32,000 bases of DNA from positions 441,007-473,006 of the forward strand of contig NZ_KB907791.1 of assembly GCF_000382205.1 (NCBI RefSeq), given 5' to 3'. Position numbers and translations under genes: made by a program. Within the stretch, counting starts at the first letter, position 1; each line of letters starts with the position of its first letter. The notes under the pieces are model-generated. The model was not told the DNA's origin and did not search any database. It worked only from the letters and a program-made list of their open reading frames with translations. Shown here piece after piece: positions 3,744 to 28,995 of the stretch. This stretch comes from Dyadobacter beijingensis DSM 21582. GTDB taxonomy: Bacteria; Bacteroidota; Bacteroidia; Cytophagales; Spirosomataceae.

Positions 3744-4105
3744 AGGCCTATATCGAAATGTTATCCGGGCAAATGTATCTCAATTGATAATGGAAGTCCA
3801 GAATTTTGGAAAGCAATCGCAACGCGGGTACACCAAACTGCCGCGTTAGTATGCCCAGCACTAGCTACGTCCATCAATGAAAATTTATAAAACTCTTCCG
3901 CTAGCGACTTCGGAGCGTTTGAGCGGCCAGATGAGATTGTGACACAATCTGACATCTGGCCGATTGCGGGTAAGAGGCAATCCCGAAGTTCCCGGATTCG
4001 CACTTGCCCGTTGAACGGAGAAGGAAAAGTGATATTCGTCCCGTCATGAACGTATTACAAGAAAGCCCTATATTTAGCAGATACTATTTCACGTAACAAA
4101 AGTCT

Positions 4106-5155
4106 GTGAGCTTAACTACGGTAGACCTAGCCACTGGTCGCTATCAAATTTCAAAGGGCGTGACCGCGAATGAATTGGCTAAATTGGCAGAAGATCTGAA
4201 AACTTCTGTAATCCAGCTTTCCAAGCCGATTGATACTAAAACCATTGCCTTACTGGAACAAGTCGTTTTTTCCAAACGTCGAGACATCGCCCTGAGGGTG
4301 TATGGGCACTATTCTGAGAGATGTGATCTAAGCTTTATTGAAAAGATACCATCGATTAGAGAGCTCTCGGTAGATTGTCTGATGGAGGTCACTAATATTG
4401 ATGTAGTTACGAGAATCCGGCACTTAGATGGACTGCATGTAGGCATTTTTGGACTTGATAACTTTGAGTTCCTGAATAACGTCGACCCTCACTTGAAGCG
4501 GCTCTCGCTATATCAGACTCGATCAAAAAAACCAAGGATTGAGACGATTGGTCGGTTCACTGAACTTAACGAACTATTCTTAGAAGGACAGAGCAAGGGG
4601 ATTGAGGCCATTAATGAGTTGAAAAAACTCGAAAAAATCGTATTGCGATCTATATCAACCCCGGATATTGAATACCTTAGGAATCTGGAACGCTTATGGT
4701 CCGTTGATATTAAGTTAGGAGGTATAAAGGATTTAAGTGCATTAAAATCCCTACCCAATTTGAAATACCTGGAAATTTGGCAAGTTAGAGGACTTTCAGA
4801 CCTGTCGGTTCTATCGGACTTAAAATCGTTACAAAACTTATTTCTTCAATCACTACCGCAGCTCGCCGTGTTTCCTGCAATATCTAGCTTGGGTAAACTA
4901 AGGCGTATTGACCTTGAAAATCTAAAAGGTTTGATGGACTTGAGTGAATTGAAATCTGCGCCTGCCTTAATTGAATTCAGTTACTTAATGGCACAAAACC
5001 AAAGCCCTGAAAACCTCATCCCTGTACTCGAAAATAAGAGCCTGAAAAGGGTCTCTTGTTATTTTGGTAGCGATAGGAAGAATAATGATTTTAAAAAGCT
5101 AGCCCAGTCATTTGGAAAAGATGAGTGTGAGTATCAAAAGTTCGTGTATAACTGA
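4106..5155 (+). CDS. Leucine-rich-repeat (LRR) protein
   Basis: 349 aa with a GTG start per the ORF track. It has about 22-24-residue LxxLxxLxL repeats, for example LPNLKYLEIWQVRGLSDLSVLSDLKSLQNLFLQSLPQL and LGKLRRIDLENLKGLMDLSEL. Its 3' end overlaps the convergent integrase 3' end by 22 nt. Confidence 0.6.
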   Translation: MSLTTVDLATGRYQISKGVTANELAKLAEDLKTSVIQLSKPIDTKTIALLEQVVFSKRRDIALRVYGHYSERCDLSFIEKIPSIRELSVDCLMEVTNIDVVTRIRHLDGLHVGIFGLDNFEFLNNVDPHLKRLSLYQTRSKKPRIETIGRFTELNELFLEGQSKGIEAINELKKLEKIVLRSISTPDIEYLRNLERLWSVDIKLGGIKDLSALKSLPNLKYLEIWQVRGLSDLSVLSDLKSLQNLFLQSLPQLAVFPAISSLGKLRRIDLENLKGLMDLSELKSAPALIEFSYLMAQNQSPENLIPVLENKSLKRVSCYFGSDRKNNDFKKLAQSFGKDECEYQKFVYN

Positions 5156-6315
5156 GGTTCATTCGCATAGATCTGCGTAGTACGGATGTTCGTATGTCCA
5201 AGCATTTTAGAAACACTCTCAATCGGAACTCCATTTTGCAGGGTAATCGTAGTAGCGAACGTATGCCTGGCTACGTGTGAAGTGAGAACTTTATCAATCC
5301 CGCAGATTACGGCAATCTCTTTCAGATAATCATTCATTTTTTGGTTACTCGGCACCGGCAAAACGAGCCCGCGGGATTCGCAAAGCGGATGGCCTTTGTA
5401 TCTGTCAATGATTTGAAGCGCTTCCGGCAGCAACGGAATGTGAGACTTGACATTCATTTTGGTGCGCTGGCTAAATATCCACTGTTCACCGTCAATTCCT
5501 CGTGTTATCTGGCTTTTTTCGAGCTTCTGAACATCCGAGTAGGCCAGGCCGGTGAAACAACAAAAAAGAAAGGTGTCCCGAACCTGTGCAAGCCGGTCGC
5601 TAGCAAATTCTTTCCCCGCCATCAAATCCAATTCAGTTCTAGTGAGGATCTCCTTGTCAACCTTTTTAAATTTACCCTTGAAGTTCAAATACGGGTCAAG
5701 GTTCATCCAGCCATTGCCCAGGCAGATGTTGACGATTTTGCGGAACATTTTCATGTGCTTCACCACCGCGTTGTTGCCCATTTTACGAACTGAGCGGAGA
5801 TAGAATTCGTAATCGGCGATGAAAGCGAAATCGATGCGACTAATGTCAAAATCGGTTGTGTTGAATGTCACTTTCAGAAATGCGAGTGTATGGCGTTCTA
5901 AAACCTTATAGCGATTGAATGTATCGATTGCATATTCCTGGCCAACCAGTGCCTTCATCCGATCATTATGGTCAGCAATCACTACCATAAGTAACCGCTG
6001 CTTAGGACCGACGCCCAGAAATTTGTTTTTGACCGTTTCCGCTGTTATCAATGCGCCGTCGCGAACCAGGGCGGCGTGGGCGTCGAGTAGTTACTGTTCT
6101 AAGTTGCCGAGATAAGCGTTGACGGATTTCACGGTTTCCTTCGCACCGGTAACTCTTCCCGCAACCGCATTCCATCGACTGGGTTCGCATTCGCGCCCGG
6201 TCGTAAATTCAGCTCTTTTACTTTCAACCGTAATCCGCAGATAGATCGGAACCGGACCTTTCTGATAATTCTTCGGCTTCTTCAAATAGAAAAGCAGACT
6301 GATCTTTGTTTTCAT
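5134..6315 (-). pseudogene. Tyrosine recombinase/integrase (Bacteroidota Arm-binding + SAM-like + catalytic domains) with one in-frame TAA at 6091-6093
   Basis: The ORFs 6091-6315 and 5134-6051 are in the same frame (1182 nt = 394 codons). The minus strand reads ...AAC TTA GAA CAG TAA CTA CTC GAC... (NLEQ*LLD). The C-terminal catalytic motifs are HVARHTFAT and LGHTNIRTTQIYA. Confidence 0.85.
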
Positions 6316-6511
6316 ACCCTTTTCAGGTTAAAAAGTTGAACAAAAGTAGTCTTGCAAGCCTGGTCAGCGCAAGATGTCCACCGCATGGACATCTTGTAAA
6401 TCAATTGGTTACGCGATTTCTGGTGAGTAAACTTTTCAGGCTGATTGACTCACCGAATTACTCACCAAAACTTTGAGAATATTTGAACGTTTTGGTATAG
6501 TAGGGGCAAAC

Positions 6512-6545
6512 AAAAAAGCCTGCAATCGTTTGATTTGCAGGCTTT
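6512..6545. terminator. Rho-independent terminator-like hairpin, stronger on the minus strand
   Basis: A perfect 8-bp stem GCCTGCAA (6518-6525) / TTGCAGGC (6534-6541) has an 8-nt loop. An A6 run precedes it (T6 on the minus strand) and TTTT follows it on the plus strand. It lies between the small ORF 6591-6833 (-) and the integrase upstream region. Confidence 0.55.
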
Positions 6546-7003
6546 TGATGCTTTTTGTTATTTCTTTAAGTGATCCCGCTGGAATCATTTTTATCGCCTA
6601 ACTGCCTCATAAACAGCATTGCTTCTGAATAGGATTTCCAGGTTACCGGATAGGTTACCGGATGAAATGATCAATACTGTCGAGCTTTGACCACTTTCTA
6701 CAAGTATAAAACTACTGATTTTTTTCTTATAGACAGTAACATATTCCATATTGATAATGCGATGACACCGAACAACTGCCTGATTGTTTGCTTCAAAAGT
6801 CTGTACCGTTCGGTGTCTTTGGGAGATACCCACTTTTGCTAGTTTTGGGAATCGCCTCCTGTGTATGCTCGCAGTTCGGATTCTCTACTTGTCGACGGAA
6901 TACTTGGCATCGCCTAAAGTTCTGTCGTAAGACTTACCAAAGCAATTGGAGTAAATTTTTATTCAAGGGATTCAGGATTGCTGAGCAAATTGAAAACAAA
7001 ATG

Positions 7004-7011
7004 TAACTTTG
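7004..7011 (+). promoter_or_regulatory. Candidate Bacteroidota -7 promoter element (TAnnTTTG) for the 7055-10276 operon
   Basis: TAACTTTG lies 44 nt upstream of the ATG at 7055 and fits the TAnnTTTG consensus used by Bacteroidota sigma-A. No convincing -33 TTTG was found at the ideal spacing. Confidence 0.3.
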
Positions 7012-7054
7012 AGAATTCTGATCTACAGTTTCCCCTCCCTAATAAGCTAACAAT

Positions 7055-7873
7055 ATGAGTCAATGTTTCACCATACAGCCTTTTGACAAAGATCGTTTTG
7101 ATAAGCGCTTTACAGATGTGTTTGAGCCCGCAATTAAGAAGGCTGGCTTAAATGCCTATCGGATAGATCGTGATCATTCAGTAAGAATCCCGATCGAGGA
7201 GATTGAGAAGGGCATAAGGGAATCGGAAATTTGTTTCGCGGAAATTACTACTAATAATCCGAACGTATGGTATGAGCTAGGCTATGCGTTTGCGTGTGGG
7301 AAGGATGTTGTGATGGTTTGCTGCAAAGATGAACGCAAAGAAGAATTCCCATTCGATGTGCGACATAAATTTATACTCGACTATAAAAGCACTTCAACAA
7401 GTGATTTCCAGTCTCTCTCCGAACTCATTACCGAACGTATCAAAGCATACCTTGCCACATCTAAGGTCACTGAAAAGCTCTCACTATCACCGATAATGGA
7501 AACTGAGGGGCTAAATGCTCAAGAAATTTCAGCACTAATAATAACGCTCGAGAATCAACCGACAGACCATGATATGTTAAGCGTCAATAGCTTGATTGAT
7601 TACATGGGCAAGGCTGGGTTCACTCGGGCAGCTACAAACGTGGCAATTCGCACTCTCAAACGCAAACAGCTGGTCGACTTTGTTCAAAAGGAAGAATATA
7701 ACTATAACGAATCCTACCAAATAACTTACTGTTTCTTGACAAAAAAAGGTGAAGATTGGCTAATCGATAATCAGGATAAAATTCGAATTAGGTTAGATCC
7801 ATCTGAAAAAATAAGTTCCGAAAAAACGGAATCCCCGTCTGAAAATGATGGTGATGATGATTTACCATTTTAA
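7055..7873 (+). CDS. Nucleoside 2-deoxyribosyltransferase-like / TIR-like Rossmannoid domain fused to a C-terminal winged-helix domain, with an acidic tail
   Basis: The N-terminus reads FTIQPFDK..FDKRFTDVFEPAIKKAGLNAYRIDRD...ICFAEITTNNPNVWYELGYAFACGKDVVMV. This fits the NDT/TIR-like pattern (DxxxxnpNVxyElGyAxaxgK). The C-terminal ...GFTRAATNVAIRTLKRKQLVDFV... is wHTH-like. The protein ends in ENDGDDDLPF. Confidence 0.6.
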   Translation: MSQCFTIQPFDKDRFDKRFTDVFEPAIKKAGLNAYRIDRDHSVRIPIEEIEKGIRESEICFAEITTNNPNVWYELGYAFACGKDVVMVCCKDERKEEFPFDVRHKFILDYKSTSTSDFQSLSELITERIKAYLATSKVTEKLSLSPIMETEGLNAQEISALIITLENQPTDHDMLSVNSLIDYMGKAGFTRAATNVAIRTLKRKQLVDFVQKEEYNYNESYQITYCFLTKKGEDWLIDNQDKIRIRLDPSEKISSEKTESPSENDGDDDLPF

Positions 7874-7907
7874 CTTTTTCGTTTTGAGTACTTACATTAG
7901 TTAAGAA

Positions 7908-9428
7908 ATGATTTTCAAGATACTCAATCGTTGGGGCGACTACCCTCCGTCCACTCGTAACCAAGTTATCCTTACCTGGGATAATTGGAATGATTTCCAA
8001 TTCTACACGTCCTTCGGCATTTTCTATATCGACGAGGATTCGAAAAAGCACGAACTTAGTGGTATAAAGATTGGATTTATTGGTCAGTCGGTGAAGCAAC
8101 GTGTATACAGCATAGGTCATTCGTTTGACCGCCTTGAATCACCATATTTTTCCTTGGGAACCTCCGAAGAGTACTACGAAAAATTAAATTTGCTTCCGGA
8201 TGATATCAGGGATGAAATTTTATCAGGCCTTCGCGATCTCGCAAAGGATACGGAACTGTTTTATGAGGTGATCAACGAACCGGTAGTCGCGAAATCGTTG
8301 CTGAGAGACCTAAGCATATCAACAGTTACGGGACAGTTTAAACGAATGACCGAAGGGGGGGCTAAGCTGACGGACTACCATTTTAAATTCAATTATGCGG
8401 GATTTGCAACGACTCATCCGGTCGAACTAACTTTTGACGTGTCTCCCGAGTCTCAGCCACCAACTAACATTCATGTGATTATTGGAAGAAACGGAGTTGG
8501 TAAGACATACTTGATAAATAGTATGATTGATGCTCTTGTTATCGATGGGAAGAAGCAAACCGGTGGGGGGGACTTTGACTTCGTTGGTTATAATTCTGAA
8601 AGTGGAGATTCATTTGCGAACTTAATATCCATATCCTTTAGTGCTTTTGACGAGGTAGAACCGAAGTCGAAGAGCACTAAATTTATGGGTAACATCAGTT
8701 ATTCCTATATCGGATTAAAAAATACAGAGGCAACAAACCTGCGACGTTCCTCCATCAAAGATCCATCTCTATTGGCAGATGAATTTCTAAATAGTTTAAG
8801 GGCATGTCGTTCAAGACTTTTGTCAAAAAGATGGCTCCAAGCTGTCTCCACGCTCGAGTCGGACCCGAATTTCTTTGAAGCTGGTATTCGGAGCTTGATC
8901 GACGAGGTCTCTCCTCGACGGTCCGCAGACGTTTTAAATGTTTTTCGAAGGCTCAGTTCGGGACATAAAATCGTGTTGTATTCAATCACAAGTCTCATTG
9001 AAAAACTACAAGAACGTAGCCTTGTCATAATGGACGAGCCTGAGGCGCACCTGCATCCTCCACTATTATCAGCCTTTATTCGGTCGGTTTCCGATCTTTT
9101 AATTATGACTAACGGTGTTGCGATTGTTGCGACCCATTCGCCAGTCATTCTTCAGGAGGTCCCTAGAAGTTGTGTATGGAAGTTGAGGAGAAGCGGACCG
9201 GTTATGGTTGGAGAGAGACTTGCGAGAGAATCATTCGGTGAAAACGTCGGAACATTAACAAATGAGATTTTTGGTCTTGAGGTTACTGATTCCGGTTTCT
9301 ATAAAATGTTAAATAAGATTATGAAGCTACAAAATTTTGATTATGAGTCCGTTATTCGAGAGTTCGGAGGTCAGTTAGGAATGGAGGCAAGGTCAATTTT
9401 AATGGCTGAAATTGCGAATAGAGAATAA
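7908..9428 (+). CDS. ABC/AAA_21-type ATPase (Septu PtuA-like) with a ~190-aa N-terminal extension of unknown function
   Basis: Walker A is GRNGVGKT (8484-8507). The ABC signature-like motif is LSSGHK. Walker B plus D-loop is LVIMDEPEAHLHPPLL (D376 at 9033). The H-loop is VATHSPVILQE. The stop overlaps the next start (TAATG). Confidence 0.75.
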   Translation: MIFKILNRWGDYPPSTRNQVILTWDNWNDFQFYTSFGIFYIDEDSKKHELSGIKIGFIGQSVKQRVYSIGHSFDRLESPYFSLGTSEEYYEKLNLLPDDIRDEILSGLRDLAKDTELFYEVINEPVVAKSLLRDLSISTVTGQFKRMTEGGAKLTDYHFKFNYAGFATTHPVELTFDVSPESQPPTNIHVIIGRNGVGKTYLINSMIDALVIDGKKQTGGGDFDFVGYNSESGDSFANLISISFSAFDEVEPKSKSTKFMGNISYSYIGLKNTEATNLRRSSIKDPSLLADEFLNSLRACRSRLLSKRWLQAVSTLESDPNFFEAGIRSLIDEVSPRRSADVLNVFRRLSSGHKIVLYSITSLIEKLQERSLVIMDEPEAHLHPPLLSAFIRSVSDLLIMTNGVAIVATHSPVILQEVPRSCVWKLRRSGPVMVGERLARESFGENVGTLTNEIFGLEVTDSGFYKMLNKIMKLQNFDYESVIREFGGQLGMEARSILMAEIANRE

Positions 9429-22239: not shown

Positions 22240-22560
22240 ATGGCGGCCATGGAAGAGGATATAAAACATTTGAGATATCTCTTTCAGAAAGCAGATGTTA
22301 AAAGACGTCGAAAGCTCTACGAATGTTTCTCCGATATCTTCGACTCACAGAACTCGTATGTAATCACCGTTGAAATACTCAACGACAAGCTGGGTGCTTC
22401 GGTTGTCTCTCGAGCTGATGTGAAGTACATCAGGGCGCACTGCAGCAAGTGGCAGAAGCCGTCAACGCCAGAGCAACCCACAATTGCTCCCGCGCAAAAA
22501 AGGACCGTGCCGAAAATCAAGTGGACTGATCCAGACCAGGCACCAGACCCAGCATCTTAG
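22240..22560 (+). CDS. Hypothetical small protein upstream of the ParA-like gene
   Basis: A 106-aa ORF ending 21 nt before the ParA-like start. The C-terminus is Pro/Ala-rich and looks disordered. I recognised no family. Confidence 0.4.
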   Translation: MAAMEEDIKHLRYLFQKADVKRRRKLYECFSDIFDSQNSYVITVEILNDKLGASVVSRADVKYIRAHCSKWQKPSTPEQPTIAPAQKRTVPKIKWTDPDQAPDPAS

Positions 22561-22581
22561 AACCAATAAACCAACTGACCA

Positions 22582-23277
22582 ATGAAAAGACTACATTTCA
22601 TTACCCAAGCCAAAGGCGGCGTGGGCAAATCGCTACTAATGTATTTGCTCGCATTAAAGCATTACCAAAATCCCAATTATCTGTTCATCGATCTGGACGC
22701 GTCTTCATTTACAAGCCAGCGCCAGTTGCAGTTCGTAAGTCCGAAACAGTTTCGTAGCGTGAGCCTACTCGATGAAAGAGCGGTACTCGTCCGCGATAAT
22801 CTGGTCGAGTATCTGGAATTGATCTCAACCTCACCATTTAGCGAGATATATGTCGACATGGGAGCCCCGGAGAGTGAGCAGCTTCCGGCACTCATTGAAT
22901 TCGATCTGCCGCTTCGCGAATTCGCAGAGGAATTGGGTTTAGAAATCCAGTTTCATATCGTTGTGGCGGGCGCCGGTGCTTACAGTCCTTCGGTAGAATT
23001 TCTGAAAAAAATGATGGCCGTCGCGGGCGAGTTCAAGATCATAGTATGGCAAAACCTGTCGAGCTTTCGAAAGTTTGCAGAGCTATCGAAAGAGCTCAAA
23101 GAGAATTGCCAGTTGATGCAATTACCGTTCAGGCAATTTGGCGACTTCGAAGTGGGTTCCTATCTAGGGGCCAAGATTCTGTCAGGAACGCGAAGAGGCC
23201 TATCACTTGAAGAGTTTGAAACAGGCCCTAGGCTCAGACTGAAACGCGAACTTCATTTCAATATTAGCCATGACTGA
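22582..23277 (+). CDS. ParA/MinD-like ATPase (TraA-like protein of Bacteroidota mobile elements)
   Basis: It has the deviant Walker A FITQAKGGVGKSLL near the N-terminus. Its size of 231 aa and its position upstream of mob genes resemble TraA/ParA of CTn-type elements. Confidence 0.75.
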   Translation: MKRLHFITQAKGGVGKSLLMYLLALKHYQNPNYLFIDLDASSFTSQRQLQFVSPKQFRSVSLLDERAVLVRDNLVEYLELISTSPFSEIYVDMGAPESEQLPALIEFDLPLREFAEELGLEIQFHIVVAGAGAYSPSVEFLKKMMAVAGEFKIIVWQNLSSFRKFAELSKELKENCQLMQLPFRQFGDFEVGSYLGAKILSGTRRGLSLEEFETGPRLRLKRELHFNISHD

Positions 23278-23803
23278 ACAGGAATCAAATCTTTCGGAAA
23301 CACTTAGCCGTATCAAGGCAGAGTACCAGTCGCGATACGGGATGGATATGGACGAATGGTCTGCGGTGATGATGGCAGATAACCAAAAAGCTTTCGATGA
23401 AATCCGACACTGGCTAGCTAGACATTTTGAAGAGGCCAGAAAGCTTCGGGCTACTTTCAAAGGGTCAATCAAGCAAGTAACGTTTGCCTCGGACAAACAG
23501 GCTTTTCTATATAGCTTGGGCCGTCTTATTCCGCCATCGGTTTGTGCGTTAGTTCTTGGGATTTGTTGTTACGTATACATGAGTACGTACAAGGATTATC
23601 AGGAGCTGGAAAGGTTAGTGGATGCTTATGCTAACATGCCACTTTACGAACAGATCGTCGTCGATGGTCAACTAACCAAAGAAAAAGGCGTGACATATCT
23701 GGTGTTAAGCCCAGCAAAAGCGGGCAAACATCGGATTGGCAAGACCTATGAATATGATTCACGAAACAAAGTCGTCAAAGTACCCTTAAAACGGCAGCAA
23801 TGA
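23270..23803 (+). CDS. Hypothetical protein with one TM segment, coupled to the ParA-like gene
   Basis: It overlaps the upstream gene by 8 nt (ATGACTGA). It has one hydrophobic segment, LIPPSVCALVLGICCYVYM. I recognised no family. Confidence 0.45.
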   Translation: MTEQESNLSETLSRIKAEYQSRYGMDMDEWSAVMMADNQKAFDEIRHWLARHFEEARKLRATFKGSIKQVTFASDKQAFLYSLGRLIPPSVCALVLGICCYVYMSTYKDYQELERLVDAYANMPLYEQIVVDGQLTKEKGVTYLVLSPAKAGKHRIGKTYEYDSRNKVVKVPLKRQQ

Positions 23804-23961
23804 TCAACAGTAGGCCATTTTGATCCTTAATTTGATCTCTAATAGGAAATAGTGAGAAATTTTGGATCAGAATGGGCCATCCTGCTCCACTTTAAGCTAA
23901 GTCAAAAGCCATTTTAAGAACTTTTGAGCTGGAATCAGCATGCGCGGTGGTTTCCTCCACA

Positions 23962-24012
23962 GCCAGCTATCGCCGGTACGTCGCGAAATGCGACTCCCCG
24001 GCGGGAGCTGGC
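23962..24012. promoter_or_regulatory. GC-rich nested hairpin, candidate oriT recognition structure
   Basis: Three nested stems are separated by small symmetric bulges. GCCAGCT (23962-68) pairs with AGCTGGC (24006-12). CGCCGG (23971-76) pairs with CCGGCG (23998-24003). GTCGC (23980-84) pairs with GCGAC (23990-94) around the loop GAAAT. The structure lies 63 nt upstream of the MobC-like start. Confidence 0.45.
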
Positions 24013-24074
24013 CATGGGAAAACCCCTGGACCCCTGCTATTCGCCTCCGGCTCATAGCTAATCAAAAAAGACAC

Positions 24075-24734
24075 ATGGAAAATCAGAAACAAAAAGGCAG
24101 ACCGCCGAAGGAAAAAGGCACTGCCAAAAGGGAACACTTTTCAGTATGGGCGAGTGCTGATCAGAAAAGACAAATTAATGAGCTCATTGAAAAAAGCGGG
24201 CTTTCCGCCAGTCAATATTTCTTGACCTTGGCGCTTGATGTGCCTTTTAAAAGGCCACAAAAAAGGGCGCTACCCAAGGCAACTGCCGAGATGGTCAGGG
24301 TGCTCCAACAGCTTTCGGGCGTTTTGTCGCTGGCAGCCCTGAAAACCAAGGGACACCAGATTCTTACAGACCAGTGGCAGCAGAGTAGCCAACGGGTCAG
24401 GCTTCTTGCGGATCTGATCACCCTTTGGGTGTTTGAAAGCTTTGAGATCCGTAGCATACAAAAAGCTTTCGACGAGCTGCTTAATTGCTCAAATGAGCTC
24501 AGCTTTTATCTTTCTCAAATGCTGCCTGAAACCGAAGGCAAGCATCAGCTGCTTCTTAGATGCAGTGCGACCAGCCGTATGACCAGTGATTTGAAGCAAA
24601 AATATGAGGACTACTATTCGCAGCCACTTGAAGAGCTAGGACCGCTTTGGAAATCAGGCGAAACCGACGCCCTTTCCGTTCACGCTGAGATTGAAAAAGC
24701 TGTAATTGCAACCCTGAAAAAGATGAGGTTATGA
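24075..24734 (+). CDS. MobC/MobA-like relaxosome accessory protein (ribbon-helix-helix type)
   Basis: From the internal ATG at 24075 the protein reads MENQKQKGRPPKEKGTAKREHFSVWASADQKRQINELIEKSGLSASQYFLTLAL. This is the typical N-terminus of Bacteroidota MobA/MobC-family proteins. The stop overlaps the relaxase start (ATGA). Confidence 0.7.
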   Translation: MENQKQKGRPPKEKGTAKREHFSVWASADQKRQINELIEKSGLSASQYFLTLALDVPFKRPQKRALPKATAEMVRVLQQLSGVLSLAALKTKGHQILTDQWQQSSQRVRLLADLITLWVFESFEIRSIQKAFDELLNCSNELSFYLSQMLPETEGKHQLLLRCSATSRMTSDLKQKYEDYYSQPLEELGPLWKSGETDALSVHAEIEKAVIATLKKMRL

Positions 24735-25576
24735 TTGGGAAGGCGACACTCGGCAGCTACGCCAAAGGGTTGATTGAATATTGCTATTACGACAAGCATG
24801 TCTCCGCGAAGATGCGGCAAAGCCTGGATGAACAGGAGGTCCGAGGAGAATTGGTTTATATCCAGAACCTGGGGATCAAAATGCAGGCAGACGGGAAGTT
24901 AGACCTGGACTATTTGATCAAACAGTTTAACCGTAATCACATGCAAAATACGAACCTGAAAAAGTTCATGTGGCACCAGTCATTTAGTTTCGCGCCGGGC
25001 GAAAAGCCTGGCAACGAAACGATCGCCGAGATATCCACGGAATTTGCAAAGGAGTTTGGATTTGAACAGAACCAGATGCTGGTTTTCAAGCATGAAGATA
25101 CGTCGAATGTGCACTTTCATATCGTCGCAAATCGAATTAATTTCAATGGCCAAAACACTTCAAAGCACTTTCACAACTACGCCAGAACCGGAGAATTCTG
25201 CCGCAGAATGGAACAACGTCTTGAATTAATCCAGGCACCGGAAATGAGGATCAATAAGCGGCTCGGGCTTGAAAATGTGCTGACCGACATGCAGCATCTG
25301 AAACTCAAATCATCCGTTGACCAGCTTTTAAATACGGCAGCATCGATCAATGAACTCAAAGCGAAATTGTTAACCCAGGGGTACAAAACTTATGTTGGAA
25401 GAGGGATCGCATTCTATCATATGCGGAAAAATATAAAAATTAAGGGCTCCGACTTAGGGCGGAGCTATTCGCTCGCCGCCATTGAAAAGCGGCTAGCTCG
25501 AAATATCGGAATCGGGATTAAGGAGGAGTTGCAGCAACAGCAAAAAAGGCAGAAAAAGCAGGGCCTGGGCATTTAA
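24731..25576 (+). CDS. Relaxase/mobilization nuclease (MOB family, MobB-like)
   Basis: It has the histidine-triad region EDTSNVHFHIVANRINFNG (HxH...N motif of Relaxase/Mobilisation nuclease domains). It is coupled to the upstream accessory gene. Confidence 0.8.
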   Translation: MIGKATLGSYAKGLIEYCYYDKHVSAKMRQSLDEQEVRGELVYIQNLGIKMQADGKLDLDYLIKQFNRNHMQNTNLKKFMWHQSFSFAPGEKPGNETIAEISTEFAKEFGFEQNQMLVFKHEDTSNVHFHIVANRINFNGQNTSKHFHNYARTGEFCRRMEQRLELIQAPEMRINKRLGLENVLTDMQHLKLKSSVDQLLNTAASINELKAKLLTQGYKTYVGRGIAFYHMRKNIKIKGSDLGRSYSLAAIEKRLARNIGIGIKEELQQQQKRQKKQGLGI

Positions 25577-28097: not shown

Positions 28098-28191
28098 CGG
28101 GAGAGGTGACTACATGCCTTTTTTTAAGTTGCTCGGATTGCTGAAAAGAATCACTAAAAGATGCGTTCAGTGCAAACGAAAGTTACAAAGC

Positions 28192-28314
28192 AAAAAATGA
28201 CGGTTGCAAGCCTGCACTACGTCATCCGGCTTTTTAGCTGGCCGCATAACTGCCAGCCGCACCTTAAACCGCCGGATGGCCCTGCAACCAAGGGGACAAG
28301 CCCCGTCATTTTTT
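28192..28314 (+). other. 123-nt nested inverted-repeat element upstream of ardA (structured RNA/ssDNA element or complex terminator)
   Basis: The outer stem is a perfect 12 bp: AAAAAATGACGG (28192-28203) / CCGTCATTTTTT (28303-28314). Inner pairs are TTGCA (28204-08)/TGCAA (28283-87), ATCCGGC (28224-30)/GCCGGAT (28271-77) and GCTGGC (28237-42)/GCCAGC (28252-57). Confidence 0.6.
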
Positions 28315-28383
28315 CATTGAGTGGAAGGCAGCGATTGCCCTGAGCACAAAGCCAGGCCTTAGCTACTTAAATGCCTTTCAATC

Positions 28384-28941
28384 ATGAGAAATCTCGAAAA
28401 TGCTCCAAAAATCTATGTTGGAACCTACGGTCAGTACAACAATGGATCGCTGTTCGGTAAATGGTTTGACCTGACCGAATATGCTGATCTCAAAGAATTC
28501 CTGCAAGACTGCCACGAGTTTCATCGTAATGAGTTCGATCCCGAACTAATGTTCCAGGACTGGGAAAACATCCCGGATTTTTTGATATCAGAATGCAGCC
28601 TTCACAAAGAAGCTTTCGCCTACTTTGAGGCCACCGGTGAAATGGACCATGAGACTGCCGAAGCATTCGAGATTTACTGTAAACAGATCAACTATTGGCC
28701 ATCTAACGGGTACGAACTACAAGACCAGCTTGAGAGCTTTCGGGAAAGCTACCGGGGCTTCTTTGGCGGATCGATGAAAGATCCAGAGCTTGAATATGCC
28801 TACCAATACATTGAGGAGACAGGCTTGCTGTTAGGAGTCCCACGGGCTCTCGAGCGTTATTATGACTACGAAGCTTTCGCGAAAGATTTATTTCTGGATG
28901 GCTACTGTGCCTACGAAGGCCATGTATTTGCTGATTATTGA
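28384..28941 (+). CDS. ardA: Antirestriction protein ArdA
   Basis: KIYVGTYGQYNNGSLFGKWFDLTEYADLKEFLQDCHEFHRNEFDPELMFQDWENIP is the characteristic ArdA N-terminal domain. The size (185 aa) and acidic composition also fit. Confidence 0.9.
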   Translation: MRNLENAPKIYVGTYGQYNNGSLFGKWFDLTEYADLKEFLQDCHEFHRNEFDPELMFQDWENIPDFLISECSLHKEAFAYFEATGEMDHETAEAFEIYCKQINYWPSNGYELQDQLESFRESYRGFFGGSMKDPELEYAYQYIEETGLLLGVPRALERYYDYEAFAKDLFLDGYCAYEGHVFADY

Positions 28942-28946
28942 ATATA

Positions 28947-28995
28947 AAAGTGCGGTTCGATGCCGTTGGCATTGAACCGCACTTTATTCTTTTTG
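28947..28995 (+). terminator. Rho-independent terminator after ardA
   Basis: An 18-bp stem with one mismatch, AAAGTGCGGTTCGATGCC (28947-64) / GGCATTGAACCGCACTTT (28969-86), has the loop GTTG. ATTCTTTTTG follows. Confidence 0.8.

Follow-up and report, generated by a model that had tools for sequence, protein, structure and literature searches.

The window, the whole 32,000-nt stretch of Dyadobacter beijingensis DNA analyzed here, contains a mobilizable element whose genes were assigned with Pfam. A NikA-like accessory gene and a MobA/VirD2-type relaxase gene (24076-25576 on the plus strand, the relaxase at 24731-25576; PF21983 and PF03432) are followed by an HTH gene, a 353-aa ORF, a HEPN gene, the structured non-coding element that is the subject of this report, ardA, an HTH_17 gene and an IS256-family transposase gene. 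The ardA gene (28384-28941, plus strand) encodes a 185-aa protein matching the ArdA family (PF07275, E 4e-30). Just behind it, a terminator scan flagged a plus-strand hairpin with an 18-bp stem and a T-rich tail (28947-28985), likely the terminator of the ardA transcript. Relatives display a compact layout of NikA-like gene, relaxase gene, ca. 60 nt, element and ardA; in the window and in many relatives, cargo genes are inserted between the relaxase gene and the element. The element is always co-oriented with the NikA-like and relaxase genes.

Upstream of the NikA-like gene, a non-coding block with a nested GC-rich hairpin (23950-24060) is conserved at the DNA level between diverged mobilizable elements, and the intergenic DNA that flanks it is not. 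This block is likely the oriT core. Within 23940-24080, the ca. 110-nt conserved block overlaps the listed start of an ORF at 23940, and the ATG at 24076 is the more likely start of the NikA-like gene. An ATCCTGC sequence (23879-23885) next to a TTTGATC inverted repeat was considered as an IncP-type plus-strand nick site and rejected, as it is absent from all related elements; the TTTGATC repeats and ATCCTGC (23813-23885) are not conserved in relatives.

Directly before ardA lies a hairpin that an earlier note had described as a perfect 12-bp stem, AAAAAATGACGG (28192-28203) with CCGTCATTTTTT (28303-28314), enclosing nested inner stems, and all of these are present in the sequence. The 123-nt limits then proposed (28192-28314) proved too narrow: the conserved, covarying element extends over 28168-28342, ca. 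175 nt, and an alignment of the four copies in the strain's own genome shows conservation from ca. 28165 to ca. 28350, well past the hairpin. The distance to ardA, previously put at 70 nt, shortens accordingly, with helix P0 ending 41 nt and the covariance-model match ending 31 nt before the ATG at 28384. What is added to the hairpin is helix P0, a lengthening of the outer stem to ca. 16 bp and a second branch, P5; judged from the alignments, the hairpin is the core of a larger branched element with five to six helices that is conserved in soil Cytophagales.

Both strands of the hairpin fold far more stably than dinucleotide shuffles, with DNA as well as RNA parameters, in the folding check that the earlier note had suggested. 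For the 141-nt stretch around the stems, fold z-scores were -4.9 (DNA, plus strand), -4.4 (DNA, minus strand), -3.8 (RNA, plus strand) and -2.9 (RNA, minus strand), and none of the 200 dinucleotide shuffles generated per case folded as well (0/200 in each). The minus strand was the more stable one by minimum free energy (MFE) in 80-86 of 91 homologues; this result was discarded as evidence, since shuffles show an equal offset. The offset between strands arises from the G+T-rich composition, and the MFE strand comparison is therefore not used. The Rfam search matched no known RNA family: none reached its gathering score in the window and matches around the site at E<=10 were at chance level, none of them relevant. 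Scans for tRNA and tmRNA found none, nor did a scan for sigma-70 promoters, whose consensus is not relevant for Bacteroidota.

In the consensus fold, helix P0 leads through an internal loop into the ca. 16-bp helix P1 and a three-way junction, from which a long arm (P2, P3, P3b and P4) and the side hairpin P5 extend. We assign these parts to the minus strand and give them in window coordinates. P0 pairs plus-strand CAGTGCAAACG (28168-28178) with plus-strand CGATTGCCCTG (28332-28342), occurs in the MFE fold of the minus strand as DNA, and has double changes in 9/9 pairs among 92 sequences. One side of the internal loop between P0 and P1 is formed by a -7-like box, TAACTTTC in minus-strand reading (28185 down to 28178), which is unpaired; the side that faces it (28320-28331, ca. 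12 nt) is poorly conserved, with most columns at 0.3-1.2 bits. P1 joins a left arm at 28186-28202, in which C28191 is bulged and which includes the A-run/TGACG stem of the earlier note, to the right arm CGTCATTTTTTCATTG (28304-28319). In the same 92 sequences, 14 of its 16 pairs show double changes, e.g., from A-T to G-C in the outermost pair. P2 (28204-28212 with 28279-28287) contains plus-strand CAA at 28207-28209, which reads TTG on the minus strand and is a candidate -33 element held in duplex. These CAA/TTG pairs almost never change, and the adjoining pairs covary freely.

Further out on the long arm, the left arm of P3 and P3b (GTCATCCGGC..TTTA, 28221-28236) pairs with 28265-28280; P3 pairs covary and the TTTA/TAAA pairs of P3b are invariant. 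The right arms of P3b, P3 and P2 (28265-28287), placed by alignment and covariation, carry invariant TAAACC and TTGCA motifs. The apical hairpin P4 (28237-28257) is variable in length and sequence and lies outside the covariance model: it is GCTGGC/GCCAGC in the window, and relatives have other short stems or open loops. In seven loci (L083, L087, L093, L086, L098, L088 and L035), the tip of P4 carries a common GC-rich palindromic insert of ca. 16 nt (GGCGCCCCCGG-like), which may be a tiny mobile or repeat unit. P5 (28292-28304), a GGGG-loop-CCCC hairpin that abuts P1 at the three-way junction, is supported by covariation, with double changes in 3/3 modelled pairs and a full G/C flip in one member.

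Covariation among homologues, another check proposed at the outset, is very strong and reveals a conserved structure. In a MAFFT alignment of 27 sequences that was not fitted to the structure, 89% of cells pair, compared with 39-45% when pairing partners are displaced by 1-3 columns. The same alignment contains double changes in 27 pairs vs 9-14 in these slid controls, a number that 0/500 shuffles equalled. When 92 distinct homologues were placed on the covariance model, termed R1, whose alignment was built on the plus strand, 92% of cells pair vs 34-45% in slid controls, and double changes occur in 38 of 46 pairs (312 such cells).

The departures from Watson-Crick pairing differ between strands. 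Read on the plus strand, A·C combinations occupy 91 cells and G·T combinations 35, with one pair set aside; counted by pair, A·C is in excess in 24 and G·T in 7. The pair set aside, a frequent plus-strand T·G (63 sequences), was rejected as it is not a real pair. Its G pairs with the C of an extended P3 in long variants (60 sequences), where C-G takes the place of the apparent T·G, and short variants, which have no such C, carry C in place of the T (15 sequences). Parsimony on a FastTree phylogeny of 91 sequences counted 69 changes from Watson-Crick to A·C vs 27 to G·T in plus-strand reading (binomial p 2e-5). Unpaired columns served as control and show a slight opposite bias, with 150 changes of the A·C type vs 205 of the G·T type; since they lean the other way, a mutational strand bias is not the cause. 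A plus-strand A·C is a G·T on the minus strand, and therefore the minus strand is the one kept foldable. Moreover, the model alignment was made on the plus strand, so that any fitting bias works against this conclusion. On this substitution evidence, the strand whose pairing has been maintained is the one that serves ardA and the mob genes as template, the minus strand.

The minus strand also carries a conserved promoter-like feature. The sequence TAnnTTT[C/G] occupies the P1/P0 loop in 90 of 92 distinct sequences, with a final C in 82 of them and a final G in 8. Neither TA nor TTT varies (1.9-2.0 bits), nn reaches 0.9-1.2 bits, and the box side as a whole averages 1.7 bits per column. This imbalance between the box side and the facing side suits a site recognised on one strand better than a loop in a structured RNA. 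Even the most diverged members retain an exact consensus box, TATTTTTG or TAAATTTG. TAnnTTTG is the -7 box of Bacteroidota sigma-A (PMC7366714, PMC9723704), located at -12 to -5 in the flavobacterial consensus (PMC9723704). In the genome studied here, TAnnTTTG occurs upstream of genes 920 times in sense vs 644 times in antisense orientation, most often at 20-60 nt from the start codon. Of the 92 sequences, 72 have a TTG exactly 21 nt upstream of the box, and the count rises to 80 when spacings of 20-22 nt are allowed; in three diverged members the triplet is TGG. The TGG members speak against a promoter, as do two further observations: upstream of the genes of this strain, TAnnTTTC shows no enrichment (436 sense vs 499 antisense), and the 21-nt spacer exceeds the genomic promoter peak of 19-20 nt.

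When the minus strand is folded as DNA, the MFE structure has the box as an unpaired stretch separating P1 from P0, and the geometry of this fold suggests that the box would point into ardA only in folded single-stranded DNA (ssDNA) and away from it in duplex DNA. As such, the fold appears to rebuild host-type promoter elements aimed at the downstream gene, with the box unpaired rather than in duplex. The earlier note had seen no TAnnTTTG motif or promoter hexamers in the stem. This holds within the 123-nt stem, but the box is present just outside it, on the minus strand, which is why it was missed. No further TAnnTTT[GC] box turned up on either strand between the element and ardA, within the opening 300 nt of ardA or in the 270 nt upstream. 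For the plus strand, the search took in the spacer before ardA and ca. 270 nt upstream in 57 loci and gave only four singletons. Since the box would be at -12 to -5, transcription is predicted to start near 28337, plus or minus a few nt, within the right arm of P0. This would give a leader of ca. 47 nt whose remainder, 28343-28383 on the plus strand, is the spacer before ardA and contains no plus-strand box. P0 keeps positions -5 to about +7 paired and would have to open for initiation, so that the start position is uncertain. The invariant TTTA/TAAA pairs, CGC and CCGCC motifs, and P5 go beyond the needs of a simple promoter.

The element is linked to ardA across Dyadobacter and Ravibacter. 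It was found by blastn in 19 of 201 genomes of the same family and with model R1 in 6 of 151 genomes sampled over the order. Among 151 genomes sampled over the phylum, R1 matched only the window's own genome and none of the other 150; in the genomes searched, the family thus appears to be confined to Cytophagales. A blastn search (word size 11) with 28100-28400 against 72,556 plasmid records gave no match. Scanning species-representative genomes for ArdA proteins yielded 80 loci, and R1 matched on the ardA strand in 67 of the 69 Dyadobacter/Ravibacter loci, in most of them ca. 30-33 nt (about 31) before the ardA ATG. None of the 11 ardA loci from Bacteroidales, Dysgonomonas or gammaproteobacteria matched. 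In the Bacteroidales and Dysgonomonas loci (L117-L127), the ca. 300 nt before ardA comprise a conserved non-coding region of their own, different from the element; its minus strand forms a long imperfect hairpin (z -2.7, 4/200 shuffles as good), and no exact TAnnTTTG box was seen in it.

Diverged members in another Cytophagales family (L039, L044 and L046 at 1501-2120; L040 at 573-1704) contain the exact TATTTTTG box and lie 25-28 nt before DUF6876 genes and an ArdC gene (ArdcN and zincin domains). DUF6876 may therefore act in early establishment or anti-defence. In L031, a second copy is located 31 nt before the gene of a small secreted protein with a signal peptide, and an element copy in the same locus is followed by a strongly G+T-rich tract of ca. 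400 nt (1650-2030) in which no convincing ORF is found.

Four copies of the element reside in the strain's own genome. On contig C4 (1447-1700 of the extracted locus), a copy with 92% identity precedes a second ardA gene, and homology to the window stops at the 5' edge of the element, where it abuts a divergent beta-lactamase-family gene (PF00144). On contig C7 (1290-1740), the element directly follows a gene for a 281-aa relaxase; there, only a short remnant of ardA is left, which contains a stop codon, and a STAND/KAP-type NTPase gene comes next. The copy on contig C2 (1195-1690) lies between ABM-like and SLATT_5 genes, with no mob gene or ardA within 1.5 kb. Upstream neighbours vary and include relaxase, HEPN, type I R-subunit-like, ABM-like and divergent beta-lactamase-family genes. 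The element thus goes together with the beginning of the gene that follows it, in most cases one for anti-restriction, and not with its upstream neighbour. Intact copies that persist without ardA beside relaxase genes count against the promoter reading.

A promoter active on incoming ssDNA requires that the minus strand be the one transferred, a question on which the gene layout bears. In two relatives (L091 and L093), the order element, ardA, one further gene, HTH_17, o106, o231 and o177 runs into oriT from the side opposite the relaxase gene, with all genes pointing to oriT. This is the layout of the F and ColIb-P9 leading regions, whose genes also point toward oriT on the side opposite the relaxase. 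At 3780-8550 in both loci, the region comprises the element, ardA, one gene, HTH_17, homologues of the window ORFs at 22240-23803, the oriT block and the NikA-like gene. The window contains the same modules in circularly permuted order, which implies that its mobilizable element is a small circle linearised at another site. In conjugation, the relaxase gene is as a rule the last to be transferred (PMC11541004). By analogy, this rule and the layout of the two relatives favour the minus strand as the transferred strand. An analogy that points the other way comes from the plus strand of the oriT block, where a CCCCTG-C motif after the hairpin vaguely resembles IncP nick regions; if the analogy holds, the plus strand could be the one nicked, which would break the ssDNA promoter model. 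Wobble pairs on the oriT hairpin, judged by eye, amount to one case per strand.

The explanation we favour, at a probability of roughly 60%, is that the element is an Frpo-like ssDNA promoter in a Bacteroidota version, carried on small mobilizable elements of Dyadobacter and related Cytophagales. The main idea of the earlier note, a promoter on folded ssDNA that serves ardA, is thereby strengthened, being favoured by the ardA linkage, the pairing kept on the template strand, and the box with its TTG. During conjugation, the template strand of ardA (the window's minus strand) would enter the recipient as ssDNA and fold into P0-P5. This fold would hold TTG in the P2 duplex and, ca. 21 nt downstream on the same arm, present the -7 box unpaired, like a pre-opened promoter. 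The arm with the box would be the 3' arm and act as non-template strand, with the left arm of P0 providing the non-template side of the duplex that immediately follows the box and the poorly conserved loop side at 28320-28331 providing the template side of the pre-opened bubble. RNA polymerase would copy the 5' arm, starting near 28337, leave the structure at its base and continue on the single strand that serves as ardA template. Sense ardA mRNA would thus be made before the complementary strand, and ArdA would be ready by the time the DNA is open to restriction. Conversion to duplex would abolish the structure and leave the box pointing away from ardA, limiting expression to a transient burst. 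The same RNA could also prime synthesis of the complementary strand. A more elaborate version, which we put forward tentatively and somewhat short of an even chance, is a branched promoter that evolved independently and is read specifically by Bacteroidota sigma-A, with the -7 box permanently unpaired on the non-template arm. From the far end of the leading region, it would transcribe ardA, HTH17 and three small ORFs toward oriT, as well as prime the second strand.

The main rival, which is compatible with this explanation because one RNA could serve both roles, is a priming signal similar to sso or ssi. Here the folded minus strand would recruit RNA polymerase or primase to make a short primer, and the element's place ahead of ardA would be coincidental, or would follow from its place behind the relaxase gene. 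Folding on one DNA strand and the intact copies directly after relaxase genes without ardA are both as this reading would have it. In ICEBs1, the Sso1 origin likewise comes immediately after the relaxase gene. Priming of DNA synthesis is also a function of Frpo (PMC12672017). A fixed distance of 25-31 nt to the start codons of four unrelated gene families, together with the 67/69 ardA linkage, points instead to downstream expression, and we consider priming as the sole role unlikely.

Readings in which the structure works as RNA are less probable again. A structured 5' leader of ardA, whether riboswitch-like, protein-binding or stabilising, could be read through from the mob operon, and such a sense-strand RNA would accord with the place of the element directly upstream of and co-oriented with ardA, with covariation of several helices with conserved loops, and with a plus-strand fold z slightly better than that of the minus strand. 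Yet the wobble and mismatch changes favour the other strand, 69 vs 27; no Rfam family matches; no plus-strand box occurs within 270 nt upstream; and in the C4 copy, where the upstream gene is divergent and homology ends at the edge of the element, there is no room for a sense promoter. We regard this reading as improbable. An antisense small RNA from the minus strand, regulating ardA or the relaxase gene, has slightly lower odds still: it would account for the maintenance of pairing on the minus strand, and its termination could be provided by the T run behind P1, but a minus-strand box to the right of the element exists in only 1 of 57 loci and is not conserved, a transcript from the sole conserved box, which is found at the structure's 3' end, would not contain the fold, and the neighbouring genes are all on the plus strand. 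Least probable, and in our view quite unlikely, is a terminator or insulator that separates ardA from the mob operon (or the HEPN gene), a reading of which the earlier note had offered one form, an unusually long bidirectional terminator. The A-run and T-run flanking the outer stem, and the location of the element ca. 60 nt after the relaxase stop codon in the compact layout, would suit it. However, no terminator was called here by the scan, covariation in P0 is seen on either side of the T run and beyond it, and one copy has a divergent neighbour; because P0 encloses the T run, this run cannot be where the functional molecule ends. A conserved branched structure of ca. 175 nt with invariant loop motifs also far exceeds what a terminator needs, and the element is linked to its downstream gene, with a varying upstream neighbour.

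The ssDNA promoter that we favour has its closest known counterparts on conjugative plasmids. Newer classes of ssDNA promoters, 2 and 3, have been described on pESBL and F, with class 2 promoters lying before ardA and klcA on IncI1 pESBL and F and their starts mapped by 5' RACE (PMC12672017). By analogy with class 2, the element would combine a large template-strand fold directly before ardA with a rebuilt promoter aimed at the gene, expected to be silent as duplex. Class 2 promoters, however, are simple long stem-loops with sigma-70 -35/-10 hexamers and have no sequence similarity to the element, which is branched (a three-way junction plus a closing helix) and has a TAnnTTT box in an unpaired loop. 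Frpo of F and ssi1-3 of ColIb-P9 are described as single-strand promoters (Masai & Arai 1997; Bates 1999, as cited in PMC11541004 and PMC12672017). With these, the element would share the concept of a single-strand promoter, an early burst of establishment genes and possibly a primer RNA, all three being proposed for the element. It differs from them in phylum, sigma specificity and architecture, and it occurs singly on a small mobilizable element, in contrast to the several elements on a large plasmid. Compared in this way, the element is an analogue and not a homologue of Frpo/ssi.

Single-strand origins, such as ssoA/ssoU of rolling-circle plasmids and Sso1 of ICEBs1, are strand-specific folded DNAs of ca. 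150-200 nt that are recognised by RNA polymerase and can adjoin a relaxase gene. Unlike the mRNA proposed here, ssoA, ssoU and Sso1 produce a short primer, and reading the minus strand of the element in the window and alignment revealed no copy of their conserved terminal-loop motif CS-6 (TAGCG[T/A], TAGCGT-like). A further parallel is 6S RNA, an open-promoter mimic that acts as an RNA decoy and sequesters polymerase. Like the proposed fold, it shows the holoenzyme a pre-opened bubble flanked by duplexes, but the fold of the element is proposed to act as DNA and to be productive.

Among the papers searched, none brought ssDNA promoters together with Bacteroidota. To our knowledge, ssDNA promoters have been demonstrated only as sigma-70 promoters on enterobacterial plasmids. 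A survey of leading regions searched for sigma-70 hexamers only (TTGACA/TATAAT) and does not mention Bacteroidota (PMC11541004); relying on the sigma-70 consensus, it therefore cannot see ssDNA promoters of other phyla.

Promoters on ssDNA explain how anti-defence genes are expressed from incoming conjugative DNA ahead of restriction. The element family described here adds a well-aligned Bacteroidota case comprising ca. 90 distinct sequences, with a covariance model, a predicted box and start, and a clear prediction of the strand. Reuse of the same element before ArdA, ArdC and DUF6876 genes marks DUF6876 as a candidate for such an early role. The strand-specific wobble test offers a general means to separate ssDNA signals from RNA leaders. 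If the more elaborate version proposed above is correct, this would be the first such promoter family outside Proteobacteria to be defined by strand-specific covariation, and it would provide a natural pre-melted substrate that shows which bases sigma-A reads as ssDNA.
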